From: Escherichia phage E20
Sequence record: OP745616
Reading direction: 5' to 3' (one strand)
Length of the DNA: 64,000 nucleotides
The position numbers were made by a program, and so were the translations under genes. The notes under the pieces are model-generated. The model worked only from the letters and a program-made list of their open reading frames with translations, was not told the origin of the DNA and did not search any database. Positions 1 through 45,600 of this stretch are shown in pieces; position 1 is the stretch's first letter; each line of letters begins with the position of its first letter.

Positions 1-18
1 CCACCTTACACGTTACAC

Positions 19-31
19 GTTGCTCCGCAAC
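19..31 (+). promoter_or_regulatory. Putative virion-RNAP (vRNAP) early hairpin promoter, copy 1: GTTGC-TCC-GCAAC followed by CTATGGACATG
   Basis: 5-bp stem/3-nt loop hairpin (loop TCC on + strand, GGA on template strand) with conserved downstream GGA(T/C); three copies precede early gene blocks; matches the known N4 vRNAP hairpin-promoter architecture. Confidence 0.6.
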
Positions 32-74
32 CTATGGACATGTCGTCCTATCATCAACTATTGGAGCTATCATC

Positions 75-398
75 ATGACTACTACCGCTACTGTACGTAT
101 GACCGCAGGAACTTTACTTGGTACTGTTAACTCTGCTGCTACTACTGTTGCAGATACATTTGGTACTGCTACTAAAGCAGTAGGTATGCTTAACTCATAT
201 GTATCTACTATGGCAGAGAAACAAGCCATTCGTACTAAATTAGAAATGCATACATTCGTAAACAAATTAGCTGAAGAAACAGCTATGAACGAGACTATGC
301 GTAAGAAAAGTATCGAAGAATTCTGCAAAGATTCAGAGAACGCTCGTATCTATAACGCAGAATATTCCAAAGTAATCGACATCCTGACTAAAGACTAA
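75..398 (+). CDS. Hypothetical early protein (107 aa)
   Basis: First ORF after hairpin promoter 1; followed by a rho-independent terminator. Confidence 0.5.
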   Translation: MTTTATVRMTAGTLLGTVNSAATTVADTFGTATKAVGMLNSYVSTMAEKQAIRTKLEMHTFVNKLAEETAMNETMRKKSIEEFCKDSENARIYNAEYSKVIDILTKD

Positions 399-405
399 AT
401 CAATA

Positions 406-431
406 GGAGACTCTTCGGAGTCTCCTTTTAT
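406..431 (+). terminator. Rho-independent terminator (GGAGACTC-TTCG-GAGTCTCC + TTTTA)
   Basis: Perfect 8-bp GC-rich stem, tetraloop, T-run. Confidence 0.7.
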
Positions 432-683
432 AAACATTAGATAGATAGTCTATTTTGCATAAAAAGTTAAAAGAGAATCCTACTATGAGCAAACTAGAAA
501 ACGCATTTATCCTGACTGTTTGTGTACTTGCAATTGTTACTTTGGTTTCCATTCACATTGGGAAACCTCTGGTAAATACTGACTATGGCAATGGTCAAAA
601 AGTAAAATCCATCTTGCTAATGGATAAGTAAAAACCGCTGTTCCACAGCTTACGGATACATTTCAACCAATTAGGAGACATCC

Positions 684-899
684 ATGCACACAGAAAATAT
701 CCGTATAATTGAGAATTGCTTTAGTAACAAACCAGTAGACCTCAGCAACGCAAGAAGGTCTACTGATAAAGAGTATGGAGAGTTTCTATCCTTACTCGAT
801 GAGTATCGTATGCAAGGGCATGTTGAATTACATGCCTATCTGCATAACTCAGGCTACTTCATGGATAAACTGGAATCTGAAACAGGCTGTCCATTCTAA
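684..899 (+). CDS. Hypothetical early protein (71 aa)
   Basis: ORF with AGGAGA ribosome-binding site a few nt upstream. Confidence 0.5.
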   Translation: MHTENIRIIENCFSNKPVDLSNARRSTDKEYGEFLSLLDEYRMQGHVELHAYLHNSGYFMDKLESETGCPF

Positions 900-950
900 G
901 TAAACAATTCCCTCTTAAGAGGGAATCAGCACAGAGTGCTTAAAACCAGG

Positions 951-963
951 GCTGCTCCGCAGC
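951..963 (+). promoter_or_regulatory. Putative vRNAP early hairpin promoter, copy 2: GCTGC-TCC-GCAGC followed by CTTTGGATG
   Basis: Same hairpin and flank as copies 1 and 3; lies upstream of ORF 1076..1459. Confidence 0.6.
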
Positions 964-1075
964 CTTTGGATGATTTATGCATCCACTAATCATTGAAATC
1001 TTAAGTCTTTTCTTGGGTTTAGTCACCGACGGACAAACCCATAAATCAAACAATCATTTATCTGGAGAGTACAAA

Positions 1076-1459
1076 ATGTCTATTCAAAAATTCACTTTCG
1101 GTCAATCTAACCCTGCTGCTACCACTGAAACTAAAACTGCTAAGCCTAAAGCTCAGTTCTGGTTGAACATTGGTTATATTGCTAATGAAGGCTCTGAAGA
1201 TGAGAAGTTCATCTCTCTGCCTACTGGTATTCCACTGGATACTCAGGAACCACTGCCTACTAATAGCAGCAATGCTGACTTCCGTGCTATGCGTTGTGCA
1301 CAGAACGACTTGCTGGAACAGTTAATCGAATATGCTCAGAACCTGGAACCAGGTGAAGAAGGTATCATTAACCTGCAAGTTCAACTACGTCGTGTGAAAG
1401 CAGAGGCTGCTGACATCCCAGCAGACGAGAATAAATATGCTCGTAAACTGACTTTCTAA
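1076..1459 (+). CDS. Hypothetical early protein (127 aa; ORF track gives 977 as longest start)
   Basis: In-frame ATG at 1076 preceded by GGAGAG RBS; downstream of hairpin promoter 2. Confidence 0.5.
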
Positions 1460-1468
1460 TCAACAACT

Positions 1469-1497
1469 GGACTCCCTTCGGGGAGTCTTTTATTTTT
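1469..1497 (+). terminator. Rho-independent terminator (GGACTCCC-TTCG-GGGAGTC + T-run)
   Basis: GC stem, TTCG loop, TTTTATTTTT. Confidence 0.7.
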
Positions 1498-1602
1498 AAC
1501 TAGACGATAAGCTATTTCTACTTTTTGAGTATCTTTAGACGAAGGGTACTGAAACAGTAACCAGATAGATATAGATTTATATTAGATGAAGGAGTAACCA
1601 CT

Positions 1603-1899
1603 ATGCGTACATTATGTAACCGTTATAACTCACAAAAGTTGATTGATACGTTGCAACCTTGGGGTAGTAAGATGTCACTGAATGCTCGCTGGCAGGTAAG
1701 TGTAAAAGATGAAAACGGTCACTGCTATGACCACTTCTTTGTAACTAAACCTACTCGTAAACAAATCCGTAAACTTCACAATGTGCAAAAACATTACCTA
1801 TCACAAAAATGCTATGAGTGTGGTAAGAGAATAGAACTAGGTAAAGAATTTACTTTTGATGATCTCAACTATGCTCACACTGACTGCCTGAAAGGATAA
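1603..1899 (+). CDS. Hypothetical early protein with Cys/His pairs (possible zinc-binding), 98 aa
   Basis: RBS GAAGGAG upstream; CYDH...CYECGK...HTDC pattern. Confidence 0.55.
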   Translation: MRTLCNRYNSQKLIDTLQPWGSKMSLNARWQVSVKDENGHCYDHFFVTKPTRKQIRKLHNVQKHYLSQKCYECGKRIELGKEFTFDDLNYAHTDCLKG

Positions 1900-1903
1900 G
1901 ACT

Positions 1904-2122
1904 ATGCTGGACTTCATTGCGTTTGTAATACTCTGCTCTGTACTGTATCGCCTGCGTGGTTACATCCTCAATGGAGCCAAGTGGGTAAGAACTAAGTTGG
2001 TACTTATCTGTAAGTTACCCGTTGTATTCGTTAAGTGTCTGTTTGCTTCCATAGTAGCTAAAGAAGTTCGTAAGCAACTCTGGGCTAAAGAAGCAGAAGA
2101 GTTTGCAAAGAGGAACCAGTGA
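1904..2122 (+). CDS. Hypothetical small protein (72 aa)
   Basis: ORF in tight early operon. Confidence 0.4.
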   Translation: MLDFIAFVILCSVLYRLRGYILNGAKWVRTKLVLICKLPVVFVKCLFASIVAKEVRKQLWAKEAEEFAKRNQ

Positions 2123-2415
2123 TATTCACTAACATTGAGGATGCCATTGAAGAATGTATCTTCCGTAGATATCACACTGGAGTACAGAAGCGACACTATG
2201 GTGTTGTACAGCTCAATGGTTATCAAATGGCTGTAAGAATTGTACGTAACAATAAACCTTTTAACTTTATGTGGAGTACTAAACATGCGTAAGTCATTAA
2301 TCATGGGAACCAAAGCTGACGTACAGAAGATGAAAGAGCGTCTGGCTGCTAAGCAACAGACATCTGAACCAGTACGTAAGATTGTTACCTTCAACCATCC
2401 GTGCATAAAATAGTA

Positions 2416-2453
2416 AGGAGTCCTCCAATAGGAGGCTCCTATTTTTTATTTTT
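2416..2453 (+). terminator. Rho-independent terminator
   Basis: AGGAGTCCTCC-AATA-GGAGGCTCCT stem-loop then ATTTTTTATTTTT. Confidence 0.7.
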
Positions 2454-2490
2454 GAATAGTTAGTTATGTATTTAAATAGGAGAAAGAGCC

Positions 2491-2805
2491 TTGAATGAAA
2501 TAGTATGTATACTTCCTCACTTAGCTAAAGTAGCTGACAGGAATATACGGGTACATTTACCCTTCCCATTAAGTAATCCATTCACTCGTAATGAAAGAAC
2601 CACAGTAGAAGATATAGAGGTAGCTTATGAGGCTTATCTTCGTAATCGTCTTATTAGTGGTGACAAATTAATTACAGCAGAGATGGAAAGGATTGCATCC
2701 TTTGTCACAGATAGTACTAAGAAACCTGTTGGTTTAATTGGTACTGAATCTGATGTTAACGTTATTCGTAAAATATTAATGGAGGCTTTAGGTGAACAAC
2801 CTTAG
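2491..2805 (+). CDS. Hypothetical protein (104 aa)
   Basis: ORF; start codon uncertain. Confidence 0.4.
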   Translation: MNEIVCILPHLAKVADRNIRVHLPFPLSNPFTRNERTTVEDIEVAYEAYLRNRLISGDKLITAEMERIASFVTDSTKKPVGLIGTESDVNVIRKILMEALGEQP

Positions 2806-3025
2806 TGATGTAATAGTAGGTAATGAAATATTCGTTAACCGAAAAGGTTATGCACGAATTAAGCTAAAGAGTACTAACAGAACTATTGTTCGTAAGGTGT
2901 ACTCTAAACCTTTTAGTAATTTCTCTATTGATGAGGTGCGTATTAATAACAAAATGTACCTCATAGATAGTAAAGTATCTGTATGCCATACAGACGGTAA
3001 AACCTCACTTGAATATGCTTATTAA
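2792..3025 (+). CDS. Hypothetical protein (77 aa)
   Basis: ORF overlapping previous stop. Confidence 0.4.
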   Translation: MNNLSDVIVGNEIFVNRKGYARIKLKSTNRTIVRKVYSKPFSNFSIDEVRINNKMYLIDSKVSVCHTDGKTSLEYAY

Positions 3026-3037
3026 GGAATAAACAAA

Positions 3038-3259
3038 ATGTTGTTCAGCACTAATTATGGTATTTGCCCGATTTGCAATAAAGGAAGAGGAGTTGCTAAT
3101 CATAAGAAGTGTAGTCGTATCCTACAGAAACAACGGAACCAGGAAGAATGGGATAAGTTGTTAAATAATCAGCATAAAGAAGAGAACCAACAGATGGCTG
3201 TTAAGGCATCTACTCAACGTATTCGCCGTATTAACTATATACAGGGGTATCAGAAATGA
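3038..3259 (+). CDS. Hypothetical small protein with CxxC zinc-ribbon-like motif (73 aa)
   Basis: CPICNKG...HKKC pattern. Confidence 0.45.
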   Translation: MLFSTNYGICPICNKGRGVANHKKCSRILQKQRNQEEWDKLLNNQHKEENQQMAVKASTQRIRRINYIQGYQK

Positions 3260-3612
3260 AACTAATTGTAGCTGGGGGACGTGACTTCACTGACACCAAT
3301 CGTATGATTGCTGAATTACAGAAGCTAGTAGAATCAGGTGAAATAACTGATTCACCTGAACTTGTATGTGGTATGGCTCGAGGAGCAGATATGCTTGCAT
3401 ATAGTCTCTGGGCTAATAACCGTATGCCTATCCACAACTTCCCAGCAAACTGGAATAAGCATGGAAAGTCTGCTGGTTATAAACGTAATCAGGAAATGGG
3501 TGAATTTGCAGATGCTGCTGTATGTTTCTGGGATGGTAATTCCAAAGGAACCAAGCACATGATTGATATCATGAATAGGCTTAATAAACCTGTATACATT
3601 GTGAGGTACTGA
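3256..3612 (+). CDS. SLOG/DUF2493-like Rossmann-fold protein (118 aa)
   Basis: MKLIVAGGRDF ... GMARGADMLAYSWA ... CFWDG pattern typical of the DprA/LOG-like phage family. Confidence 0.5.
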   Translation: MKLIVAGGRDFTDTNRMIAELQKLVESGEITDSPELVCGMARGADMLAYSLWANNRMPIHNFPANWNKHGKSAGYKRNQEMGEFADAAVCFWDGNSKGTKHMIDIMNRLNKPVYIVRY

Positions 3613-3870
3613 GTGATTATTACATTCCCTGTAACTAAATCATTTAACTATATGGGACAAACTATTGAAGTCCCATTATGGGTTAAATATGTAGCATTAT
3701 TACCTCGTCCTCAGAAAAGCAAGAATGCCTCACTAATTGGATTTAGTAGAAAGCCTAAGCTAACCGAAAACTGTATTTGGAAGTCTAGTGGTAGACAAGA
3801 GGAAATTGGTTTTTGTGACTATGTGCTTCAACCAAATACAGTATATCTAACTCTGGAGAAAGTAGAGTGA
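3613..3870 (+). CDS. Hypothetical protein (85 aa)
   Basis: ORF, GTG or ATG start. Confidence 0.4.
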   Translation: MIITFPVTKSFNYMGQTIEVPLWVKYVALLPRPQKSKNASLIGFSRKPKLTENCIWKSSGRQEEIGFCDYVLQPNTVYLTLEKVE

Positions 3871-4187
3871 ATAACATTGTAGTAGTACATGATAATACAT
3901 TTACTGATGTCGATAAGATGATGCGTAATATTGATTACGTATCTCAGACTAGTAAAGCATTCAATGAAGAGTTCACTATTTACTGTGAACCAGAGTCACC
4001 ACTGGTTCCTGTATTAAAGGAAGCAGGTCTACCGTTCTCTACAGAGAACTTCCCAGAAGAACCAGAGTACATGATTACATTCATATATGACTTACATGAT
4101 GGCTCACATGCCAGTGAACTAGCCATGAACCAATGGCGTAGTAAACGTCCTGTATTCGCATTTCAGGTACTTAAACCAAAGGATTAA
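3867..4187 (+). CDS. Hypothetical protein (106 aa)
   Basis: ORF with overlapping stop/start. Confidence 0.45.
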   Translation: MNNIVVVHDNTFTDVDKMMRNIDYVSQTSKAFNEEFTIYCEPESPLVPVLKEAGLPFSTENFPEEPEYMITFIYDLHDGSHASELAMNQWRSKRPVFAFQVLKPKD

Positions 4188-4191
4188 TCAA

Positions 4192-4551
4192 ATGAAAGAG
4201 ATATTCGTATTCACTACTAACACATTAGGTCAGCATACCAATGCTGCTGCCAAGTTAGCCTATAAGAAGCATGGTGCTCGTTGGGGTATGGCCTATGGTC
4301 ATTATGGTAATAGCTTTGCCATTCCAGTAAGAGATGGCAATGGTAACCGTATCAAAGAGGGTGCTATTTATGGCTTCATTGAAGGTTTTATTGCCTATGC
4401 GTCTACTAATCCGCAGTGGGATTTCAAAGTCATGAGTAATGACTATCTGGACCCATACCAATTCATTAATGTAACTGGCAATGTACTGTTACCGGAAGCA
4501 TGGCGTAAACACTTAGGTGATGCTTACAACTACTGGGGAACATTCTCATGA
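4192..4551 (+). CDS. Hypothetical protein (119 aa)
   Basis: ORF. Confidence 0.45.
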   Translation: MKEIFVFTTNTLGQHTNAAAKLAYKKHGARWGMAYGHYGNSFAIPVRDGNGNRIKEGAIYGFIEGFIAYASTNPQWDFKVMSNDYLDPYQFINVTGNVLLPEAWRKHLGDAYNYWGTFS

Positions 4552-4808
4552 CATATGAAGAACTATGGGCTGCTCAGGTCAGAGCCAGAGCACTCACACG
4601 GCATGACATCTATTGTGCATTGCAGAACGAATTAAAAGGTCGTACTAAGCTAGGTCACATATCAGGTTTAGTTAAAATACCTATGCGTAGTCTAGTATGG
4701 CCTTATCAGAAAAAAAGTAATGAATTTAACGGTAATGGTTTATATGTACGTATTAACTACCTTGGTCAAGAGAACAGTATTCGTATTGCCTTTTGGACTA
4801 AGCGGTAG
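4548..4808 (+). CDS. Hypothetical protein (86 aa)
   Basis: ORF. Confidence 0.45.
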   Translation: MTYEELWAAQVRARALTRHDIYCALQNELKGRTKLGHISGLVKIPMRSLVWPYQKKSNEFNGNGLYVRINYLGQENSIRIAFWTKR

Positions 4809-4814
4809 GCAATA

Positions 4815-4827
4815 GCTGCTCCGCAGC
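4815..4827 (+). promoter_or_regulatory. Putative vRNAP early hairpin promoter, copy 3: GCTGC-TCC-GCAGC followed by TTGAGGATG
   Basis: Identical 13-nt hairpin to copy 2; upstream of ORF 4842 and the RNAPII genes. Confidence 0.6.
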
Positions 4828-4841
4828 TTGAGGATGTAATC

Positions 4842-5072
4842 ATGGCAGTATCCATTCAGGAAATCATTGTTAAAAGGCACAAGAGAAAATGGGAAAGCTA
4901 TTACAAGCTAAAAGAGGTAATTAATGCTGCTTACCTTAGTGAAGAAGGTTATGCCTGGGTTGAACTAAATAGTGTATGGCCTTGGAGACATAACATCTAT
5001 ACAGACAGTTTAATCATATTCTACAGCTATGCGAATGAGCATAGTGGTAGGCGTCTAATTGCAAGAATGTAA
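4842..5072 (+). CDS. Hypothetical protein (76 aa)
   Basis: First ORF after hairpin promoter 3. Confidence 0.45.
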   Translation: MAVSIQEIIVKRHKRKWESYYKLKEVINAAYLSEEGYAWVELNSVWPWRHNIYTDSLIIFYSYANEHSGRRLIARM

Positions 5073-5094
5073 TTAACTAATTGGAGAATATGCG

Positions 5095-5913
5095 ATGTAC
5101 TCATCAATAGAACATCAGAAGCAGCTTGAAGTCCTATTCAATAAAAATCAATTACTGCCTCGCATGAGGAAGGAATTCGAGGACTCCAAAGAAATTGACT
5201 TTAAGGCATTCGCTGCCTATTTAGAAATTGATTATAAGCTGCTCATTGATGCAATGGTGCAGATTGCCCTACATAAACGTGCTGACATCCAGACTATGAT
5301 TGGCTCTCTCATGAGTCACTCAGATGATGCTCAGTACATCGCTGACTGTCTATATAAGATGGCAGAGAATGACTGCTTCAACTATGACCCTACCATCGAC
5401 AAATTCGGTGTTATCTATGAGATTAGTGAAGATGTTCAGATGGAACTGGAAGCATTCCAGTATCCATTACCTATCGTAAGTGCTCCTAAGCCTGTTCTGT
5501 GTAACCGTGATACAGGTTACTACGAAAGCAGAGGCAGCATCATCCTCAAGAAGAATCATCATGAAATGGACGTCTGCCTTGACCACATCAACCGTATGAA
5601 CAATCAACGTCTCTGTATTAACTGGGACGTTGCCAACTATGTAAAAGACTCTCGTCCTAACATGGATAAACCCAAAGAGGGGGAAACCCGTCAGGACTAT
5701 GAGAAACGTGTTAAAGCCTTTGAGAAGTACAGTCGTACTGCTAAGGAAGTAATGGAGTTAGTAACTCAAGAAGGCAATAACTTCTCACTAGCACATAAGT
5801 ACGATAAGAGGGGCAGAACCTATGCCTGTGGATACCATATCAATTTTCAAGGGACTTCATATAACAAGGCAGTGATTGAATTTGCTGATAAGGAGCTGGT
5901 AAACGATGATTAA
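5095..5913 (+). CDS. RNAPII N-terminal (small) subunit of a split T7-like RNA polymerase (N4 gp15-like), 272 aa
   Basis: Size and position immediately upstream of the catalytic subunit; N4 RNAPII is a heterodimer of roughly 270 and 400 aa. Confidence 0.65.
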   Translation: MYSSIEHQKQLEVLFNKNQLLPRMRKEFEDSKEIDFKAFAAYLEIDYKLLIDAMVQIALHKRADIQTMIGSLMSHSDDAQYIADCLYKMAENDCFNYDPTIDKFGVIYEISEDVQMELEAFQYPLPIVSAPKPVLCNRDTGYYESRGSIILKKNHHEMDVCLDHINRMNNQRLCINWDVANYVKDSRPNMDKPKEGETRQDYEKRVKAFEKYSRTAKEVMELVTQEGNNFSLAHKYDKRGRTYACGYHINFQGTSYNKAVIEFADKELVNDD

Positions 5914-6054
5914 TAAACGTGCAGTAGAAGACTTCTATGCTCATAGAGAGTTGGTACTGAAACGCATCAATGAAGCAATGAAACGTGAGGCTGAAGCTAA
6001 AGCTAAGCATAACCGTAAATAAATCCAAATGCGAGCCAAGAGGACTAATCTCAA

Positions 6055-6297
6055 ATGAGTAAGCTATTAAAACTGTGGTTAATTAGCCAAAGTGAAAACC
6101 GTGGGCATGACTCCTTTGATTCTGCTGTTGTAGCAGCCTACACAGAGGAAGAAGCTAAACAAATTAATCCAGACGGAGAATGGAAACTATACACCGCCTG
6201 GTGTTCTTCACCAGATAAAGTACATGTTGAGTACCTGGGTATTGCCACCGAAGGCGTGGAACCAGGAATAGTATTGTCATCATTTAATGCTGGTTAA
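6055..6297 (+). CDS. Hypothetical protein (80 aa)
   Basis: ORF between the two RNAPII genes. Confidence 0.45.
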   Translation: MSKLLKLWLISQSENRGHDSFDSAVVAAYTEEEAKQINPDGEWKLYTAWCSSPDKVHVEYLGIATEGVEPGIVLSSFNAG

Positions 6298-6351
6298 TCA
6301 TCCAATAAGCAGGCTCTCCATAGTGGGGAGCCAAGAAGCGAGGAATATACA

Positions 6352-7569
6352 ATGCAACTGTTAACTGCCCGTGAATACCTGAAAGTAGATGTCGCTAACA
6401 ACTATGGCTTAGATAAAAAGACATGGGATGAACGTATTAGCTGGTTCGATGAGAACGAAGCTAATCTGCTCAATCTGGTAGATGAAGCTGAAGAATCTGC
6501 ACTGTTCTATGCTGGTGTAAACGCATGGAAAGATATGAAAGCTGGTAAGCCTATTGGTTATGCCGTAGCTCTGGATGCTACATCATCTGGCTTACAGTTA
6601 CTGGCTTGCCTGACTGGTGACCGTTCTGCTGCTGAACTGTGTAACGTAGTTAACTACATGGGCAAGAATGGTAAGCCATTACGTCGTGATGCTTATACAG
6701 TTATCTATCATAAGATGCTGGACATCCTTGGTGAAGCATCTCGTATTAAACGTAGTGACACCAAGCAGGCAGTTATGACTGCATTCTATGGTTCAGAAGC
6801 TAAACCTAAAGAAGTATTCGGTGAAGGTATCCGTCTCAAGACTTTTGAGAATGTAATGGAAACTGTTGCTAGTGGACCTTGGGCATTGAACAAGTTCTTA
6901 CTGCAATGTGGTAACCCAGACGCTAACCGTTATGTATGGGTATTGCCTGACAACTTCCATGCTGTCATTAAAGTTATGGTTCCTGAAGTACAGACTGTTA
7001 ACTTCTTAGGTAAGCCATTCGACATCACTCGTATGGTCCAAGGTACTGAAGAGAAGACCCGTATGCTCTCTGCTAACATCACCCACTCTATTGATGGGAT
7101 GGTAGTACGTGAGATGCTGCGTCGTTGTAACTTCAACATGAACCAGGTGAACTATATTAAGTCCCTCTGTGAGGGAACCAGTGAATACATGGTTGGCTCT
7201 GATGATAACTATGAAATGGTTAACACACTGTGGTCTAACTATGAGAAGTCGGGATTCCTGTCTACCCGTATCTTTGATTATCTGGACTCTGAAACAATTG
7301 CATTGGTTGATACAGATGTAATCATGGCTATGCTCAATACCATGCCTAAGAAACCATTCCCTGTAATGACCGTACACGACTGCTTCCGTTGTCATCCTAA
7401 CTACGGTAATGACCTGCGTCGTCAGTACAATCAGATTCTGTCTGACATTGCTAAGAGTGACCTACTGGGCTTCATCCTGTCTCAGGTACTGGGACAAGAG
7501 TTCTCTGCTGGTAAGCTGGATGACAGCCTTTGGCAGGACATCCTTGAAACAGATTATGCATTAAGTTAA
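6352..7569 (+). CDS. RNAPII catalytic subunit, T7-like single-subunit RNAP palm/fingers (N4 gp16-like), 405 aa
   Basis: T7 RNAP motif A-like DATSSGLQ, motif B-like RSDTKQAVMTAFYGS, motif C-like TVHDCF. Confidence 0.85.
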   Translation: MQLLTAREYLKVDVANNYGLDKKTWDERISWFDENEANLLNLVDEAEESALFYAGVNAWKDMKAGKPIGYAVALDATSSGLQLLACLTGDRSAAELCNVVNYMGKNGKPLRRDAYTVIYHKMLDILGEASRIKRSDTKQAVMTAFYGSEAKPKEVFGEGIRLKTFENVMETVASGPWALNKFLLQCGNPDANRYVWVLPDNFHAVIKVMVPEVQTVNFLGKPFDITRMVQGTEEKTRMLSANITHSIDGMVVREMLRRCNFNMNQVNYIKSLCEGTSEYMVGSDDNYEMVNTLWSNYEKSGFLSTRIFDYLDSETIALVDTDVIMAMLNTMPKKPFPVMTVHDCFRCHPNYGNDLRRQYNQILSDIAKSDLLGFILSQVLGQEFSAGKLDDSLWQDILETDYALS

Positions 7570-7575
7570 TAAACT

Positions 7576-7611
7576 GGCCTCATACCTTCGGGTATGGGGC
7601 TTTTATTTTTT
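7576..7611 (+). terminator. Rho-independent terminator
   Basis: GCCTCATACC-TTCG-GGTATGGGGC then TTTTATTTTTT. Confidence 0.7.
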
Positions 7612-7613
7612 GC

Positions 7614-7811
7614 TTGGAGGTAGTCAACATGCCAGACATCTATGATGTTATTACTAAAACCGTACTGATAGTTTTATCTGCTATTGTGATACTCACTATA
7701 GTTAACGCCCACAAATCCAAGTTTGCTTATTGCTACTATGGAGCATACTCTGCCGGATGTTTTGTATTAGCCGGTTGGATAGCTTACTGGATTTACCACA
7801 TCAACAACTAG
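7614..7811 (+). CDS. Small membrane protein (65 aa)
   Basis: Hydrophobic segments; bracketed by two terminators. Confidence 0.45.
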   Translation: MEVVNMPDIYDVITKTVLIVLSAIVILTIVNAHKSKFAYCYYGAYSAGCFVLAGWIAYWIYHINN

Positions 7812-7840
7812 CCACCCTCAAGGGTGGCTTTCTTTTTTAT
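7811..7840 (+). terminator. Rho-independent terminator
   Basis: GCCACCCT-CAA-GGGTGGC then TTTCTTTTTT. Confidence 0.7.
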
Positions 7841-7885
7841 CAGCCTTCATAATGATTAGGCATATTTACTCAAGAGGATACATAC

Positions 7886-8719
7886 ATGCCAACCCTAAAG
7901 ATTGCGTTTAATAAAACTACCAACGTTGCTACCGTGCTTGATTCAGGTGGCAGTGTTCCAGGTGGTTCCGTGGAAGTAGGTACTTTTGAACATCCAGATG
8001 CCACTTACCCTGATAGCTTAGTTATCTATCACGGTGTTCGTGACCTGTTGTATAAACGTTCTGCTAAAAACCCTGCTGAAGAAGGCTTCTGGCCTGACAA
8101 CATCGTGGATATGCAATCGGTCACTATCGACATGCAAGCTACTCCACGACTGACTGTTGCTACCAAACTGCCTCGTGTAGTCTCTGCCATCGAAGGAGTA
8201 GATGTTAACTGGCATATTGATGTAGCAGGTGGTAAAGCACCATTTACTTATAAGTGGCAATTCAAAGCTGATACTGCTGGTGCAGTATTCACTGATATTG
8301 ATTCTGGTGATAACGCATCTGCTATCACTGCAACATTGACCCTTAGTAACGTAACAGCTGCTTCTGCCGGTACTTATAAAGTGATTGTTACTGATGCTAA
8401 TGGAACCACGGTAGAAGATACCTCGTTGCTGGCTGTAGGTTACTACGAAGCAAGTTCACTGGTAGCTACTCCTACTTCACTGGCTCTGTCTGTTGCTGAA
8501 GATCTCGCCGCTGGCAAGACTGTAACCATTGCTGCTATGCCTGTTGGTTCATCTGCTGGTACTTTGTCTATCAAGACTGCTCCAGATTCTGCCCGTGCTA
8601 CAGCTACCATTGCTGGTAACGTACTGACAGTTAAACCTGTGGCTGCTGGTGATGCTACTTCTGTTGTAGTTACCAACGGTACTGTCGATGTAACCATCGC
8701 TGTTACTGTTGCAGAGTAA
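7886..8719 (+). CDS. Ig-like (BIG2-type) domain protein, putative capsid decoration protein (N4 gp17-like), 277 aa
   Basis: Two Ig-like stretches (TYKWQF...SAGTYKVIVTDANGTT; TVKPVAAGDATSVVVTNGTVDVTI); syntenic with N4 gp17, directly after RNAPII. Confidence 0.55.
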   Translation: MPTLKIAFNKTTNVATVLDSGGSVPGGSVEVGTFEHPDATYPDSLVIYHGVRDLLYKRSAKNPAEEGFWPDNIVDMQSVTIDMQATPRLTVATKLPRVVSAIEGVDVNWHIDVAGGKAPFTYKWQFKADTAGAVFTDIDSGDNASAITATLTLSNVTAASAGTYKVIVTDANGTTVEDTSLLAVGYYEASSLVATPTSLALSVAEDLAAGKTVTIAAMPVGSSAGTLSIKTAPDSARATATIAGNVLTVKPVAAGDATSVVVTNGTVDVTIAVTVAE

Positions 8720-36635: not shown

Positions 36636-36666
36636 AGCCCCTCCTTTGAGGGGCTTTTTTATTTTA
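36636..36666. terminator. Bidirectional terminator at the convergent junction of plus-strand genes and minus-strand late genes
   Basis: AGCCCCTC-CTTT-GAGGGGCT flanked by A-rich upstream and TTTTTTATTTT downstream; overlaps vRNAP stop. Confidence 0.7.
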
Positions 36667-39600
36667 GTTTACTAAGTTCATCCAAGGGTTCAGGTTGTGA
36701 GCACGAAGACCCTGACCAAAGCCCCAAGAGTAATCCAGACTACCCTTAGCAGCAATACTAAAGATGTTGTCCTGAATAGGTAAGCCAACGTTACCAAACA
36801 TGGTAGGGGTTGGAGCCAGCATCGCCATTGCTGCATGAACCGGGTTGTTACGAATCATGGACACTGCAACCTTAGCTGAACGAATCTTAAAGTTGTAGAA
36901 CCACATCAAACCAACACTTTCCATATACCCACGGAAGCGACCTGGTAAACGGTCATAGTTAACGAACTCTTCCGTTACACGTCCCAGTGCTTCTTCACGA
37001 GTCTTACCTTTACGCTGAGTCAGTTCATCATAGATGATTGCTTTAGCGATGAAGTCGGAGTACTCAACAGTCTTCTGGATACCCTGGAACAAAGCAGTAT
37101 CCTTAGTGATAAGTGCATAACGACCAGCAGTACGTACAGACTTAGGTAATTTATCAGCCAGCTTTTCCATGTATTCGTGAAGTTTGCCCTCAGTAATCAA
37201 GATGTCATCACGACCAATACCAGCATCTGCAATTGAAGAGAACTCACCTGCTTCTAACAGAGGCCAGATACTCATACGCTTATGGCTATCAGTAATAGAC
37301 TGAATTTCAGCCTTAAGTTTACGAATCTGGTTCGGGTTAGTAGCTGCACGTAATTCTGCTTCTGCATCTACCTGACGCAGACGAGATTTAAGATACTGGT
37401 TAATCTCAGCAGTTTTCTGTGGAATGCTCTTAGCAATATTCTTAACAGGTACACCACGAGCAACCATCTGGTAAAGGTTAGCCAAGAAGTTAACAGCAGG
37501 TACGACTACTGACTTAACTACAATCAGCGTCTTAGCTTCTTTAACTAAGTTTTGAACCAGGTTCTCACCACCCATTGTGTACTTATAAGCACGGTTGCCA
37601 AATACACCCAGCATAGCTTTCTTGAAGGTATCCAATGTTTCCGGGGACCAACGAGAATTACCTGACCAGGCATCTCCAACGGAAGCTGCACGATAACCTA
37701 GTGCATCATTCAGCATGTCACGACGTACCCACAGTTCACCTTCACCGAACAAACTCTCTGCTTTCTGGCGTGTTTCACTATTCATCAGCTTAAGAGCATC
37801 AGCAGTTACTGGGTCCAGTTTAGAACCAAGAAGGTTAACGTACTGGGACTTATTAGCAGAAGACATCTTAATGTCATTCTCATACATGCTATGCAGGTTC
37901 TCAATCAGCATATCGTTGAAACGCTGAGCCTTAGCTTCTTCCACCTGACGACCACGCCATACACCTATTGCACGGGCAAGATGGTTTTCACCTTCAATGT
38001 GTTTCAGCATGTTAGGGTCAATGGATTGTTCATAGGCAACCACATTACCTTTATCGTCATATACAGGCATCAGTGGTTCATTACCACGTTCCCCACGAGC
38101 CAATGCTTTAGTGATACGGTCTACGGAAGGCTTGTCAGTAATACGACCAGCTACCATGGAACCCATCGTAAAACCTGTGCCGATGTCTACACCACCAGCA
38201 GTATTGCGAACGTTTTGTAGGATACCCTGTGAGAAAGGAGCTTGTGCCTGTACCGGTGCAAAATAGTAGCTACGTGCTGGACCACGATTAGCGGAGCTAC
38301 CTTGATAAGTACCCAGACGTACATAGGACTTCTCAATCAAATCACCAAACTGACTATCTTCAGCAACAATCAGATTAACACCTTGTTTAGTCTCACTCGG
38401 GATATGTCCTTTGTACTGGTTCAAGGTTGCACGCATATCAGATTTGGCTTTAGCCATTTCATCTTTACGCTGACCAACCAGGTAAGAAGTAGCAAAATCC
38501 ATTCCATCAACTTCTGATTGAGCCAGTGAAGATAACATCTCACGGTCGGACTTGTTCATTGCTTCCAGTGCATACAGGGTAATCAGCTTATCCAGTTGAG
38601 CTACATCTACAGTAGAACGAGCAGCCTGACGTTCGCCCAGCATACGGGAGATTGCAGTAGCATTACGCAGCAGGTTATTACCGACTGTACCGTTAATCAT
38701 GAACTGAGCCAGTTGCTTAGATTTACGACTAATCAGAGGCCAGTTACGGCCTGCTTGTTTCTGTAAATCTGCTTCCAGCTTATTCACTTCACGGTCAACA
38801 ATCTTCTGGTCAGACAGCAAGTCACGGATTTCAGCCAGAGACATGGTGTCACGCAGAACAGCCAAATCAGTTTTACCCATACCAGTGTGCATTGCTTTCC
38901 ACTCATCGTTAGTCAGCTTACGGCTGAACTTAGATGCGATAGTGGTAGGCAGATGTTCACGGAACTGCTGACGATCTGCCTGCACCTGTGCACGCACTGC
39001 TTTAATCAAATCGTATACAGAAGCATTACTCTTAGTACGACCAGTTAAGTCATTAACCAGGTCATGGAAAGGTTGCCATACCTTACCCTGGTTCATTGCA
39101 GCCATAACACCTTCAGCTACGATTGCACCATTCTTCTCTGTAGCAATAGCAGCTATCAGTTGTGCAGCATGAGCAGCACCTTTGACCAATGGATTCTTGG
39201 TATTAGCTGCAACTTCACGAGCACTTTCTAAAGCACGGGTAGACAGTGCATCAATAGAATCCACCAGATACTGGTTAGAACGGTCAATAGCATTACCACT
39301 AGGAGTAGCAACAGAATCATATAATGACTGTGCATTGAGGCTAGTCTGCATGATTGTTTGAGCCAGTGCATCCATACCTTCCTGTACGTTGGTAGCTTTA
39401 GTGTCACCTGCTACACGGGCATTCAAGCTAGACATTGCAGCAGTACCGATGTTAGTCAGCATTGCATCAATGGTATTCCCAGATTTCTTATCTGCTTTCA
39501 TAACAGGAATGTTAGCCAGTACGTTACGTACTTCTTCGCTTACCATTGCCAGACCAACAAAGGTAGGCAGTAAGGAAGAACGACCCTGTGCGTCAAACTC

Positions 39601-42600
39601 AATATTGTTAGCACCCATGATGGTATCGAACTTCTGCTGAGCATAGTAACGGTCAGCTGGGTTAGTGCTATCCGGGTCAGCCATGAATGCTTCAACTGTC
39701 AGGTTCTTAGTAACGTGTGCATAGTATTCCTGTGCCCGAGAAAGAGCAGCCGGACTAATAGCAGCTTCAATAGCCAAAGCAGCAACGATATTAGTGAACA
39801 GGCGTTGTTCCTGCATATTCATAGTAAAGCCATGAGCCTGAACATCACGGGTTACTTTAGTTGCATTCACTACTGCATCAGAGAACTTACCTTTACGAAT
39901 TACTTGCTGTACTGGTTCAGAACCAATGTAGTTAGTAATCAGTTTGTCAAAAGTCTGTCCCAACTCTTCCAGACGGATATTGTCACCATACGCCTTGTTA
40001 TGGAACAAGGTAGTGTCTTTGGATACAGCAGCCGTAGGAGCCTGTCCACGCATAACTACAGAAGAGTTAAACAGCAAGCCGGAGAACATATCATCTGCAT
40101 TAGCAGGTGCTTTCTTACGACCAAATACCAGACGCTTGATTGCCTCATACACAGACTGAACCATAGTTTTCAATGCAGTGGTTTTCTTCTGCTTACCAAT
40201 CAGTTCACGGTTGGTTAAACCCCAAGCCATATACTCATTCAGTGCAGCAGCTTTAGCCATTGCAGGTTCAATAAAGCCATTAGACAAGTGACCGTTAATG
40301 GTATTGAGAGCATCAGCATATGCTTCACGTACTGCCGGGGATTCATTCTTAACATCCAGAGTACGGAACTGGTTCATCAGGTCTTCAATATTCTGAACTG
40401 CTTCATTAGGAGTACCCTCATAGTGAGCCAGTACAGATTCAAAAGTAGAAGCATGTACTAATTCATGAACCAGAGTCTCTAAGGAAGGGGTAACTAAGTA
40501 GATGGTCTTATCATCAAAGTTAGTCCAGCCATATGCATTACCAGCTTCGGCAGCTTCAATATCTTCTGGTGCTGGGCGAGTAATGTTCTTCTCAATAGCA
40601 TAAGCATCCAGTTGAGCAGGAGTACCGTAAACAACCTTGTAGTCTTTAGCAGCAAGGGATTTCTGTACTTCTTTCAATACTGCTTGCTGTTCAGGAGACA
40701 TCTCTTTAGCCAGCCTAGTGATAGCAGTATTGGACAGCATACGTACACCAGACTTCAGTACACGACCAACCTGTTCCATTGCTGGTACTTCTTTAACAGG
40801 TACTTCTTTCACTGGTTCTGCTTTAGCAGCACGTACTGCATCGCGACGCTTGTTTAATTCAGCATCAAACAGTTCGTTCAGCTTAGCTACTTGCTGGTCT
40901 ACAGTCAGACCTTCCAGAGAGATTTTACCGTTGTTCACATAAGGAGCACCCACAGCAGCCATCTGATCAACAGTGGTCTGTACCTGGTTCATTACTTTGT
41001 GGCGAATATCTACACCCAGAGCAATGTTACGCAGGTTACGTTCAATAAGGTTAACACCGGAATTCTTAATCATATCAATCTTATACTGCCTGTCTCCCTC
41101 AACACGACTGATATGAGAAAGCTGTTCAAAATCCAAAGCAGAACGGGCAATGTCATCAATTGTCTTATCCGACAACTTATTAAAGTCTACGTTCTTCATG
41201 AACTTAGAGAAGGAGTCATAAACATTCTTGATAGGATTACCCTGCCAAGAAGTATATACAGCCTCATTAGCTTTACGGCTTGCATCAGTGATGTCATTGA
41301 TACCAATGTTCATACCATCAAAGATTTTCAGGGTATTCTTCGGTGCACCTTTCATAGTAGAAAGGGTCTGCATCATCATGCCATCACCAGTACCAATGGT
41401 CATAAATGGAATACCTGCAACACCTGCTTGTGAAGGAGCATAGACGCTCATTGGCACACGCATACGGTCATCTAAGTTGGTAGCCAGTACTTGGTTAGCA
41501 ACATCAGTATTCTCACTACCAGCAATGTAGAAAGTTTGTGAGCCAGTCTCAATCATTGGAGCCAGTGGAGATAATGATTCCTGGATTTCATTAAGTTCTT
41601 TCTGCGTTAAGAAATCGCCCTTCTTCCAGGTTGGGTCTTTTTCTTTTTCTGCTAGTTTAGCCTGTACTGCTTGTTGGAACATATCCTGCAATACTAAAGA
41701 CTGAATTTGAGTAGCCTTCTGCAAGTTCTCAGTGGAGTGCATCAGACCTTCACCAACAGTGAACCGGATACTTTGTCTCATTGGTTCAACGAAGAAGTGC
41801 AACATATTCTCTTGTAAGTTCTTAAGGGCATCACCAGATACAGTAAACTCCTGGGGATCTAACTCACCAGTCAGAGCACCATCTACCTCCTTAATAAATA
41901 ACTTACCTTTACGCTTGGCTGGAATTTTACCAGTCAGTGCTTCCATAGAAGTAAGGAAAGTATCCAGCATAGCCTGAGCATCCGCTTCAGACGCAGCCTC
42001 CTTACCAAACATTGCCATAGCTGGGGAAATGCTAGGGTCAGCAGCACGTGCTTGCAGAACGTCACTGAGGCGTTCATAGATGGTATCAGTAATTGCACTA
42101 ACCATCTTGCCAGCAATACCACGAGCACCAGAACCATAGATGGTAATGGTCAGTGGGTTTTTAGCTATACCACGTTTCAGGTCCAGAGTACCGTCTTCAT
42201 TCAGGTTAAAGTCTTTAATGAACAGGTCCATTAACTTCTGGAGATGATTCATCTGGCTCATAATCGGAACGTTGTTACGGTAAGCACTACGTAATTCATT
42301 TAGATAGAATTGCAAACTATTGGTAGATGCTTCATATAAGTCAATGCTGTCATCATATGAATGATGTTCATTCATAGTCTTACCGGCTTTACCGAAGAAC
42401 AAGCCACCCTTAGCAGTATTCTTAATCCAATTTTGGGTGAACTTACCACCAGTCATTAATACCATTGCGTTGATTGGGCCGTTGGTTACACCATCAGCTT
42501 CGACATACAGTGGGGTATTAAAGTTGGCACGGTCATCGCTGTTCAGGTAACGGGCATATTCCATCAGAGCCATGAGAGCTACAAAGGATTTGTTATCACC

Positions 42601-45600
42601 CAGGGAGGACTTCAGAATATCTACTGCATCTGTGGGTAAGTAACCAGACTTATTAAATTCAACCATCATATCAACAGCAGGCTTCAGATTGCCTTCCAGA
42701 GCTTTGGTCAGATTTTCAGACATAGCTTCACGGGACATTTTATGTACCTTAATGCCTAATGCCTGAGCCAGTCCCAGCTGGAAGTCAGAGAACGCTTGGC
42801 TATTTTCATTACTCAGGTCAATAGTAGAGAAGGTTGGCAGAATTGCTTCACGAACCAGCTTACTGGATTGTGGGTTGTTCTTACCAAGCATCTGCATACG
42901 ACCTACTCGGGTCATGTTATAGCCATAGTGAATGGGGGTATCCAAACCATTCTCTTGTTCTTTTAGCTGATTAATTAAACCGAACAAGGAATCATATGCC
43001 ATAGATACTGATAAGTTCTTACCTTCCAGTGATTTGGCATTGTTCTTATTCAGCAAATCGGGATTAAGAGTACCAGCACCCATTAGTTCCAGAATGCTGT
43101 CTCGACCCAATGCTTCATAGAAGTTAACCATCGGCATGTGTACACGGAACTCAGTAGCCTGTTCAGCTTTCAGTGCAGCTTTCTGTTCGGGGGTATTCTT
43201 AACAGCAGGATTACGTAACTGAGTTTGGGCCACGGAAGGAATGTCGTCACCAAAGTACATTTTCTCTTCCGGATTTACCAACACAGCTTCTTCAATTGCT
43301 GTAGGGAAATTATTAATAGGGTCTTTATCAGCCAACTTATTAATAGTGTACAGACCAATAGTCTTATTAGAGTCCGGGTCAATCTCAGACACATCCAGCA
43401 TAGTCTCTGTAACTGCACCCATCTCAATGAGGGAAGACAGAATCTCTGTAGCCATTGCCACTGGAATGCCTTTTGTATAACCCAGTGGTGCATTAGGGTT
43501 ACGATTCAAACCCCAATAAGATTCAATCTTCTGAGCCAGTGAGCTAGTAGCTTCGACCAGGGTCTGGGCATTCTCAAATTCAGCCAGAATACTTTCTGGT
43601 AACAAGGATGCTTCTACTCCAGTAATGGCAGCTACGTCTTTTATGTCTTTAATGGCAGCATTCTGTGCAGCAGTCAGTCGCCATTGCAGACCAGCAAGCA
43701 CGGCAGTCTCTAACAACTGGTCATTGAACTTAAAGGTATCACCATCTTTTTCAACGATATTCAGCAGTTTGCCACCTACCCAACGGTTAGCTTCAGTACC
43801 TTCTGCAAAACGTTTACCAACGTTCTTATTAGCAAGGAACTTAGCCAGTCGTTCAGACAGAGTAGTCTTCAGTGTTTCCCCAAAGTCCATCAAATCTTGG
43901 TAACGTTCTAACACATCACCCGTGAGAGCGTTATTTTCTTTTTGAGTGAATGCTTCAAAGCGAGCAGCAGAAGACAGTGCTTGCTTAATATCAGCTAAAG
44001 GAGATTCAGAACCAATGGTACGGGACTTGGGTTCTTCTGGCAGGGTAAATGCTTTCAGGAACTGGTTCGGTGTCTTTTCATTGTTATAGACAGGGAACAC
44101 TGTTTCCATCTCAGAAAGAGGTTTGCCACCTACTGTATAATCTGCTTTTAGCTGAGCCAGCGATACTTCATCTTTCTCCACGTTGTTAGTGTTACGGCCA
44201 GAGGTATCTACACCAACCAGAATCTGTGCATTATTGGCTTCAACGAAAGATTGAACAGTATTGAATTGTTCAGCGGTCAGCTTTTGATTATCAAACAGTT
44301 GTAGGGACACAAACGGTTGTTCACTGCCTTTATAGAAAGTAGAGCGAATAGAACCAGTATCCAAAGACATATCACGATAGCCATCATGCCCAAATACGTC
44401 AGACAGGCTGATATGGTCGCCATTAGAACCAACCACAGTACCATCAGCAAACAACCACGGACTCTCTCTACGGTCACCACTCTTATTAAGAGTTTCCTGT
44501 GAAATGGTATTTTCTTTCACATAAGCATCTCTTTCAGATTCAGTAGGTTGCTCAATGGTATCCTCATTAGTGAGGGTAGCATCTACTGTTTCAGGCTTAG
44601 TAGTAGAAACTTCTTCTGTTTTTGGGCTAGTCTCCTTAGTAGGAGCAGTCTTATTTTCTACCACTGGTTTAGCTTTAGGCTGTACAGTAGTAGTGTCCTC
44701 TTGCACTGGTGCAGGAGTTTCATCAACCTGATTCACTGGTTCATTAGTCTGTTGAGACTGAGTGGCATCAAGACCACCTTGACGGAACTCTTTAACTACC
44801 TGGGCAGCAGGCTTGTTCAGACGTGAATCCAACGAGGTAACTTTCACATGAGAAACATTAAGCTCCGGGTAAGCCGTAGCAAGTGCATTAGCAATATCAG
44901 CTACGGTCTTGGCTTCCAGTCCTACTTGCTGGGCAAACTTAACAGACTTGGTATCATACGGATTGACACCGAGGCCAGTACGACTACGTACCCATTCACG
45001 GGAAGGCGAGAGAGCCTGATAATGAACAGACTTATTCTTATCCGCATTCCCCGAAATCAGATGCTCATTCAACGCTCCGACCTTATTCTGCATGTGCTGG
45101 GCGAACTTCATAAAGTCGCTCAGATAAGCGGAGGCCAAATCGAAGTTACCAGAGTTATACGCAGAACGAATGCGTTTCGCATGTTGCAACGCAGAGTACT
45201 GTCCTTCATTAGAACGAGACTCATCGGTTTTAATCTGTTTACTAACAATGTCTTGAGGACGTAAGCCTAGTTCTTCTGCTTTAGCGTCGAACTCACGTGC
45301 ACCCTGTAACAAGGCAGCAGCAGATTGCAGGGCAGCACGTTGACGATTCCCTAATGTAATCTTACCTTCACTCGCATGTTTCAGAATCATGTTAACTGAA
45401 TCTGCATCCAGTACTTCTGGAGACACATCAGCAGCCATAGCAATATTGTTTGCTTGGGCTTGATTAGCTTCTTCAGTAGCTTTCAGCTTACCTGCTTCAG
45501 CCTGTTCCTGAATCATGGAATGGATGGCACGGAATGCACGAAGTACTTTAGGGGTATTCTGTACGTTAGCCATCAGGCCAGAGAACTGGTCTACGATTGC

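Follow-up and report, generated by a model that had tools for sequence, protein, structure and literature searches.

Three early promoters of phage N4 (P1, P2 and P3) have been described (Haynes and Rothman-Denes 1985; Glucksmann 1992; Davydova 2007; Gleghorn 2008; as reviewed in PMC4496689), and their hairpins were mapped as initiation sites (PMC4496689). The promoter determinants of the N4 virion RNA polymerase (vRNAP) are a stem of 5-7 bp, a loop of 3 nt, and -12A, -11A/G, -10G, -8G and +1C on the template strand; in addition, the loop is closed by a G:C pair, the heptamer has its centre at -11, and RNA starts 8 nt past -8 (PMC4496689). Mutational work found the G:C loop-closing pair to be required for extrusion and stability, and residue D901 of the polymerase contacts -9C (PMC4496689). 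We drew the recognition determinants from this 2015 review and from a 2026 cryo-EM paper in which an oligo of N4 P2 is shown (PMC13492108). For Klebsiella phage KP8, putative early promoters P1-P4 have been published (PMC6950046, Table 1) and annotated as 'early promoter' features (GenBank MG922974), all of them predictions only. In Pseudomonas phage LUZ7, a member of a distant genus, early promoters were mapped by ONT-cappable-seq; nine early starts were reported, some without hairpins, the distance from hairpin centre to start is 13-14 nt instead of 11, and the number of vRNAP promoters is thereby shown to vary among N4 relatives (PMC9163698).

The stretch of DNA analysed here (64 kb, referred to as the window) is 99.9% identical to Escherichia phage vB_Eco_F22 (F22; Gamaleyavirus, Schitoviridae), a relative of N4, and its position 1 lies about 75 nt inside the left genome end. 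An initial inspection of the letters (the sequence-only reading) had proposed three hairpins, at 19-31, 951-963 and 4815-4827, as early promoters of a virion RNA polymerase. All three coordinates proved exact, with perfect 5-bp stems and TCC loops. The putative N4 P1 counterpart, promoter 1 (19-39, plus strand), consists of the hairpin GTTGC tcc GCAAC, located about 95 nt from the genome end, the spacer ctat and a predicted start at G36 (GGAC). Promoter 2 (950-971, plus strand), the putative P2 counterpart, has the hairpin GCTGC tcc GCAGC, the spacer cttt and a predicted start at G968 (GGAT); the same hairpin, with the spacer ttga and a predicted start at G4832 (GGAT), is found in promoter 3 (4814-4835, plus strand), the putative P3 counterpart. 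The stems of promoters 2 and 3 can be extended to 6 bp (950-964 and 4814-4828). The conserved GGA(T/C) is present at each site as proposed; the distance given for it, 8-10 nt downstream, holds only when counted from the loop, the GGA(C/T) lying exactly 4 nt past the stem, which puts it 9 nt past the final base of the loop and 11 nt from its centre. With the loop centre set at -11, the first G of GGA becomes +1. The pattern GYTGCTCCGCARC has three exact matches in the window, and nine with up to two mismatches against 2.75 expected.

Alignment with N4 P1-P3, the comparison suggested by the sequence-only reading, placed the three hairpins at the same positions with nearly the same sequence. N4 P1 (90-102 of N4; GTTGC ttc GCAAC ttat GGAC) has a stem identical to that of promoter 1, with the loop TTC in place of TCC, whereas N4 P2 (559-571 of N4; GAAGC tcc GCTTC tttt GGATG) differs from the GCTGC/GCAGC of F22 at two pairs, both compensated. 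The hairpin of N4 P3 (4548-4560 of N4) is identical to that of promoter 3 and is preceded by the same 'ggcaata'. In addition, the two phages share the 5-bp stem, the 3-nt loop, the coding-strand heptamer GC-TCC-GC, the 4-nt spacer, the GG start and the polymerase contact residues, and their sites are placed equally relative to gp1, gp2 and gp15/16.

Each of the three hairpins does lie ahead of an early gene block, and all genes concerned are on the plus strand. Promoter 1 is followed by a homologue of N4 gp1, a cofactor for middle transcription (75-398; 66% identity, E=7e-51), and promoter 2 by a homologue of N4 gp2, an RNAPII cofactor (1076-1459; 71% identity, E=3e-69). The first gene past promoter 3 encodes a 76-aa ORF (4842-5072), followed by the small and large subunits of RNAPII, homologous to N4 gp15 (5095-5913; phrog_2166 'N4-like RNA polymerase', E=5e-116) and gp16 (6352-7569; phrog_2051, E=3.4e-177). 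The blocks are interspersed with plus-strand stem-loops resembling terminators: a GC-rich one followed by TTTTA past gp1 (405-426), likely an early terminator, with a terminator annotated at the homologous place in SP5M; one followed by TTTATTTTTA past gp2 (1469-1488), with terminators annotated at homologous positions in SP5M and PhAPEC7; one within the early region, ahead of a T-run (2416-2440, core 2422-2435), annotated in SP5M; and one followed by TTTATTTTTT past the RNAPII genes (7576-7601). F22 is unlike N4 in having the extra 76-aa ORF between P3 and gp15, the N-terminal 40 aa of which are 50% identical to the ORF behind the fourth annotated early promoter of KP8, and in having a fourth hairpin, closed by T:A and located 5' of a gene missing from N4. 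Meanwhile, KP8 resembles F22 in carrying four hairpins, before gp1, a 71-aa ORF, gp2 and a small ORF preceding the RNAPII subunit, and the 22-mers of KP8 P1 and P3 are identical to those of promoter 1 (19-31) and promoter 2 (951-963), respectively.

The count of three promoters in the sequence-only reading missed a candidate. The fourth site (637-657, plus strand) comprises the hairpin 637-649, GCTGT tcc ACAGC (GCTGTtccACAGC), the spacer ttac and a predicted start at G654 (GGAT), and precedes a 71-aa ORF of the G7C gp1.2 type with no assigned function (684-899, plus strand; phrog_20790, E=3e-51; G7C annotation). Its geometry is as in the other three sites; however, the loop is closed by T641:A645 in place of the canonical C:G (A:T on the template). 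The G:C closing pair (template -13G:-9C) is present at 19-31, 951-963 and 4815-4827 and absent from 637-649, which we filed as a candidate variant rather than as a canonical member. In other respects the four sites agree with the N4 determinants. Each combines a perfect 5-bp stem with a loop of 3 nt, which at 4/4 sites reads GGA on the template (coding TCC) and so corresponds to 5'-G(-10) R(-11) A(-12)-3' with a purine at the centre; the coding strand carries C at -8 (template G); and a template C stands at +1, 11 nt from the loop centre, where a GTP start would be expected. All are on the plus strand, not more than 4.9 kb from the left end, and 5' of the gp1, gp2 and gp15/16 homologues.

The proposed cognate polymerase with its hairpin-recognition elements is encoded in the same window, in agreement with the sequence-only reading. 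The virion RNA polymerase gene (36664-47478, minus strand) is full length, encoding an N4 gp50 homologue of 3604 aa (taking the ATG that corresponds to the N4 start) that matches the solved N4 vRNAP chains over their full length (E=0); the identity is 67% over the whole protein and 70% within the mini-vRNAP region. Nine of the ten residues checked that contact the promoter or the initiating nucleotide in N4 are kept, including K114, R119, W129, D901 and R904; K268, K437, R440, K849 and K850 are conserved as well, and K267 is replaced by N. Both catalytic aspartates, D559 and D951, are also conserved.

Single hairpins of this size (stem 5 bp, loop 3 nt) are common, with 250 in the window, and six of them have a TCC loop against 1.8 expected, which would favour a chance similarity devoid of function. 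However, the full motif (5-bp stem, TCC, 5-bp stem, any 4 nt, GGA) occurs four times in the 64 kb, compared with 0.023 expected (mean of 1000 dinucleotide-preserving shuffles, maximum 1; 0.001 for the first 5 kb), and all four matches are co-oriented on the plus strand within the first 4.9 kb. A relaxed scan (4/5 stem pairs, spacer 3-5) added five matches, the best of which (about 38288-38300, minus strand, inside the vRNAP gene) is not conserved in N4 and was dismissed as chance. The sequence-only reading depended on similar motifs recurring in related N4-like early regions, and they are present, conserved and co-varying, in every relative examined. In the covariation set of 31 distinct sites from 12 related phages, 99.4% of the cells are paired, compared with 74.7% in shuffles and 13-45% in slid controls; four of the five stem pairs show double compensatory changes, and the observed covariation score was reached by 0/500 shuffles. 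None of the 31 aligned sites departs from the -8 pair or from the GG at +1/+2. The chance explanation is effectively refuted by the motif count and the covariation. A stem that is free in sequence but kept in pairing is the signature of an element read as a structure, not as a sequence.

This signature also bears on two other explanations. Short inverted repeats in intergenic positions 5' of genes might be palindromic operators for a dimeric regulator that binds double-stranded DNA, but in the relatives the stem sequence varies freely with pairing kept, the conserved TCC centre is non-palindromic and always on one strand, and its conserved partner is a GG at a set distance downstream; we regard operators as extremely improbable. 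Nearly as improbable is a role of the hairpins as RNA, be it in the processing or stability of read-through transcripts or in weak termination. Owing to the A-rich sequence that precedes them on the plus strand, 637-649 and 950-964 were picked out by a consensus scan as resembling minus-strand terminators; however, minus-strand genes are absent nearby, the stems are just 5-6 bp, promoters 1 and 3 lack a T-run, and with promoter 1 so close to the genome end nothing lies upstream for read-through. A role in RNA also leaves the invariant GG at a fixed 4-nt distance and the strictly conserved asymmetric loop unexplained, an Rfam search of 1-6000 at E<=1 gave no match, and the N4 counterparts are initiation sites. 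RNA folding of the predicted 5' leaders gave 5'-terminal stem-loops for the first three transcripts; the leader from 654 has the sole significant z-score (-3.2), with a different, longer-range fold. Sigma-70-like matches are depleted in 1-8000 (11 versus 23.6 expected) and none coincides with the hairpins, so that sigma-70 promoters were rejected. Counted against the vRNAP promoter reading are the DNA folding energies of the short hairpins, which are only modestly better than those of shuffles (z -0.7 to -2.7), and the genes at 1603-4808, which have no hairpin promoter of their own; their expression would therefore have to depend on read-through.

On balance, we estimate with a probability of about 0.9 that N4 P1, P2 and P3 have their F22 counterparts in the hairpins at 19-31, 951-963 and 4815-4827, with the fourth site most likely a promoter too. 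The proposal of virion-RNAP promoters thus gains support from the positions and sequences of N4 P1-P3, the published determinants, the stem covariation and the conserved polymerase contacts, while promoter function, including initiation itself, is carried over to F22 from orthology and the mechanism from N4; neither transcriptomes nor mapped starts for F22 or any other Gamaleyavirus turned up in the literature searched. By analogy with N4, the left genome end would enter the cell and be supercoiled by host gyrase, upon which the inverted repeats would extrude as cruciforms and host SSB would melt the non-template arm. The injected vRNAP would then bind the template-strand hairpin (5'-stem-GGA-stem-3'), with -11G in a pocket of W129/R119, -10G contacted by K114, and -9C and -8G contacted by D901/R904 of the specificity loop. 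The four-base spacer may serve as a ruler, such that RNA would start with GTP opposite the template C at +1, at 36, 968 and 4832 for the canonical promoters. The resulting transcripts would encode gp1, gp2 and RNAPII, and thereby switch on middle transcription.

The standing of the fourth site is less certain. The most likely interpretation of its sequence is a fourth promoter of the same type, serving the small gene cassette at 684-899. The variant is identical in G7C, EC1-UPM, pSb-1, Moo19, ZQ2 and CU10EC, while SP5M, ShWW44, K57alpha1.2 and Moonfish have a canonical hairpin at the same position (GAAGC/GCTTC or GATGC/GCATC) preceding the same leader, and in KP8 the analogous place is occupied by an annotated early promoter with a canonical GACGC/GCGTC stem and a downstream ORF unrelated to 684-899. 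The seven copies are identical and possibly of one origin, and therefore lend no independent support. A scan of IMG/VR for the T:A variant GCTGTTCCACAGCNNNNGGA returned 19 stretches, with phage context only in G7C (two copies, one per terminal repeat) and pSb-1; the other matches, in unrelated GC-rich contigs, were judged to be chance, and no new independent lineages were obtained.

Alternatively, 637-649 might be a decayed, non-functional relic, leaving just three working promoters as in N4. This is a possibility that we consider doubtful but take seriously, since the site lacks both -9C and the G:C closing pair that the N4 studies found necessary. Besides, the corresponding hairpin of IME11 contains a mismatch (GATGC tcc ACATC with GGC), suggesting that the site can decay, and PhAPEC7 and PGN829.1 manage without it. 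However, the closing pair was changed on both sides with pairing preserved, and -12A, -11G, -10G, -8G, +1C, +2C and the exact 4-nt spacer are intact. Moreover, the hairpin and leader do not vary among seven phages, one of another genus, although the immediate upstream sequence differs in each, and the canonical promoters of the sister phages and KP8 at this position also speak against a relic. We give an even chance that this T:A-closed hairpin, which at least seven phages from two genera have in identical form, works as a vRNAP promoter. An active site would probably be weaker than the canonical ones, because it lacks the G:C closing pair needed for easy extrusion in N4 and the -9C contact.

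The hairpin early-promoter system is already known biology, from N4 and from the annotated and published sites of KP8, and the findings have little significance beyond annotation. Promoters are missing from the GenBank record of F22, to which the sites can now be added, their predicted starts being 36, 654, 968 and 4832. The T:A-closed hairpin is a natural variant that could serve to probe how strictly the injected polymerase depends on the loop-closing pair; if the site is active, the rule derived from N4, which demands -9C and a G:C pair closing the loop, would have exceptions. In that case, gamaleyaviruses would grade the early expression of a small accessory cassette with a promoter that is deliberately weaker or more dependent on supercoiling.

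Positions 1-5400 of the window align over their full length, at 99.9%, with the phage vB_Eco_F22 of Escherichia (OP870143.1; Schitoviridae, Enquatrovirinae, Gamaleyavirus; F22 hereafter), with window position 1 corresponding to record position 293, and N4-related phages of Escherichia, Shigella and Klebsiella account for all 83 matching phage records. No promoters are annotated in the matching region of the F22 record. Counting both strands of the 64-kb window, there are four instances of a motif made of a perfect 5-bp stem, a TCC loop, a 4-nt spacer and GGA, in every case on the plus strand and within the first 4.9 kb, while 1000 dinucleotide-preserving shuffles yielded a mean of 0.023 and a maximum of 1. 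Three of the four, which the sequence-only reading had proposed as early promoters of the virion RNA polymerase (vRNAP), lie exactly where it put them: site 1 at 19-31 (GTTGC-tcc-GCAAC, then 4 nt and GGAC), and sites 2 (951-963) and 3 (4815-4827), both GCTGC-tcc-GCAGC followed by 4 nt and GGAT. Its count missed a fourth, site 4 at 637-649 (GCTGT-tcc-ACAGC, ttac, GGAT), which was recovered by a mismatch-tolerant search and has the geometry of the other three, with T:A rather than C:G as the loop-closing pair. At sites 1-3 exactly 4 nt separate the stem from GGA, and the centre of the loop is 11 nt from GGA; the distance of 8-10 nt given earlier is right when counted from the loop, and not otherwise. 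The folding energies of the short DNA hairpins showed only a modest gain over shuffles; generic energy parameters may fail to account for how unusually stable C:G-closed GNA triloops are. A relaxed match at about 38288-38300 on the minus strand, within the vRNAP gene and co-oriented with it (GTAGC-tcc-GCTAA tcgt GG; four of five stem pairs, canonical heptamer, correct spacer), was rejected as a promoter, being absent from the homologous place in N4 and probably due to chance.

Hairpin promoters of an injected polymerase are textbook N4 biology. The comparison with N4 that had been proposed as a check bears out the assignment: in NC_008720 the architecture of the F22 sites is present at three places, namely P1 (90-102, GTTGC ttc GCAAC ttat GGAC), P2 (559-571, GAAGC tcc GCTTC tttt GGATG) and P3 (4548-4560, GCTGC tcc GCAGC tttt GGTA), upstream of gp1, gp2 and gp15, respectively. 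N4 promoters have a GC-rich heptamer centred at -11 with inverted repeats on both flanks; template -11A/G, -10G, -8G and +1C are the bases specifically recognised by vRNAP, extrusion and stability require a G:C loop-closing pair and the loop 3' A and 5' G, and four pre-start bases act as a ruler so that initiation falls eight nucleotides after -8 (PMC4496689). The P2 template oligonucleotide of a cryo-EM study (…CCAAAAGAAGCGGAGCTTC…; PMC13492108) confirms strand and register. Sites 1, 2 and 3 satisfy every one of these determinants, and site 4 departs from them only in its closing pair and at -9C. Applying the N4 numbering, the predicted +1 falls on the leading G of the GGA at every site, namely 36, 654, 968 and 4832 for sites 1, 4, 2 and 3; by the same analogy, the gyrase and SSB steps would carry over to F22. 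Among relatives, predictions of hairpin promoters also exist for phages of Pseudomonas and Pectobacterium (PMC3715699; PMC6027278), such promoters were mapped by experiment in LUZ7, which has nine early starts (PMC9163698), and four putative promoters of KP8 were published (PMC6950046, Table 1) and deposited as features in MG922974; F22 sites 1 and 2 have exactly the sequences of KP8 P1 (ACGTTGCTCCGCAACCTATGGA) and P3 (GGGCTGCTCCGCAGCCTTTGGA), respectively. Therefore, the finding of putative hairpin promoters is correct, and its biology is already known.

The early regions of G7C, SP5M, EC1-UPM, ShWW44, PhAPEC7, pSb-1, K57alpha1.2, IME11, PGN829.1, Moonfish and N4, and later of KP8, Moo19, ZQ2 and CU10EC, were scanned, and each contains three or four plus-strand matches at corresponding places; absence of such motifs from N4-like early regions, which was to have counted against the promoters, was seen in none of them. 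The stem sequence varies among phages and the pairing is kept: P1 stems are GTTGC/GCAAC or CATGC/GCATG, P2 5' arms are GCTGC, GACGC, GATGC or GAAGC, each with a matching 3' arm, and P3 stems are GCTGC, or GGTGC/GCACC in G7C. Across 31 distinct aligned sites, 99.4% of cells are paired, versus 74.7% in shuffles and 13-45% in slid controls; four of the five stem pairs show two-sided changes, and none of 500 shuffles reached the observed covariation score. The -8 pair, the loop T, the last loop C and GG at +1/+2 are invariant. This pattern would be expected of a structure read through a few base-specific contacts, and does not fit an operator read as sequence.

Site 4 is a candidate active promoter, to which we assign a probability of about 0.6, and it is probably weaker than sites 1-3. 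That it is non-functional is suggested by N4 mutational data, in which the G:C closing pair is important for extrusion, and by the contact of D901 with -9C; the site is also absent altogether from two relatives. Nevertheless, its position is conserved among relatives, and the closing pair has changed on its two sides with pairing preserved. The leader GGATACATTTCAACCAATTA… follows a canonical GAAGC/GCTTC hairpin in ShWW44 and the T:A-closed GCTGT/ACAGC in F22, G7C, EC1-UPM, pSb-1, ZQ2 and CU10EC, and also in Moo19, a phage of another genus. Against function, these seven copies are identical and may stem from one event. The bases immediately upstream of the T:A-closed hairpin differ in almost every carrier, and in CU10EC the upstream gene differs too, so that hairpin and downstream gene move as a cassette. 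Also on the side of a functional site 4 are a one-sided, mismatched version at this place in IME11 and an "early promoter" feature annotated at the analogous place in KP8. The T:A-closed variant is seemingly undiscussed in the papers that could be searched.

The early genes comprise homologues of gp1 (75-398, 66% identity to N4 gp1) and gp2 (1076-1459, 71% identity to N4 gp2), an ORF of the G7C gp1.2 family with no function assigned (684-899), and two subunits of the phage polymerase RNAPII (5095-5913 and 6352-7569). Terminator-like stem-loops with T-runs lie after gp1 (405-426), after gp2 (1469-1488), at 2416-2440 and after RNAPII (7576-7601), some of them annotated at homologous places in SP5M and PhAPEC7. 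In the motif scan of the window, the genes at 1603-4808 had no hairpin promoter of their own; read-through would supply them. Within 1-8000, sigma-70-like matches are depleted (11 versus 23.6 +/- 4.3 in shuffles) and terminator-like sites enriched (16 versus 4.0 +/- 2.0), which fits a region transcribed by phage polymerases and not by the host enzyme. The F22 record labels the gp2 homologue "RNA polymerase subunit A" and starts it at an upstream ATG (977-1459) inside a predicted 5' leader hairpin, as is likewise the case for N4 gp2 (586-1071 of the N4 genome locus, L002). For the ATG at 1076 there is a strong ribosome-binding site (GGAGAGTACAAAATG), and in a BLASTP comparison that covered the product from 1076 onwards, similarity to N4 starts at the corresponding internal M34 of annotated N4 gp2; start and product name are probably mis-annotated. 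A 76-aa ORF at 4842-5072, which separates promoter 3 from the RNAPII gene, is missing from N4 and most Gamaleyaviruses and has no PHROG match; its N-terminus resembles the ORF after the fourth early promoter of KP8. The sequence after the site 3 start (ttga GGATGTAAT) is similar to the Moonfish P2 leader, hinting at recombination at promoter boundaries.

The predicted transcripts of sites 1 and 2 open with inverted repeats (36-48, GGACATGTCGTCC; 968-984, GGATGATTTATGCATCC), with N4 equivalents at L002 107-119 and 576-593. In N4 and every relative the leader stem stays unchanged (GGAC/GTCC or GGATG/CATCC), and the loop varies. RNA folding places hairpins at both repeats, but with non-significant z-scores; they could be a second hairpin at the DNA level, or form a 5'-terminal RNA stem-loop that stabilises the mRNA. 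Outside the window, OP870143.1 1-224 repeats 290-513 in inverted orientation (98% complementary) and includes an inverted copy of the site 1 hairpin; this left end of the record contains N bases, and the inverted stretch 1-224 is probably an artefact of fold-back in the assembly. The genome's true left end lies near record position 218, in sequence resembling the N4 terminus. The right end of the record (L015, about 71550-71790) repeats the left end with a second copy of the site 1 hairpin, and the 1160-bp terminal repeat of G7C (loci L029 and L034) duplicates site 4 as well, so that a genome carries two copies of some early promoters.

The vRNAP ORF lies on the minus strand at 36664-47496 and aligns from one end to the other with solved full-length chains of N4 vRNAP (E=0); begun at the ATG equivalent to the start codon in N4 (36664-47478), it encodes 3604 aa, with 70% identity to N4 in the polymerase domain. 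It was aligned to N4 gp50 with residue 1 of mini-vRNAP at 998, and the numbering was checked on N4 residue types. The catalytic D559 and D951 are kept, as are K114, R119, W129, K268, K437, R440, K849, K850, D901 and R904, the sole difference among the checked residues being N in place of K267. Because the F22 vRNAP is full length and the checked N4 residues are otherwise conserved in it, the self-consistent injected-polymerase system of early transcription claimed in the sequence-only reading holds.
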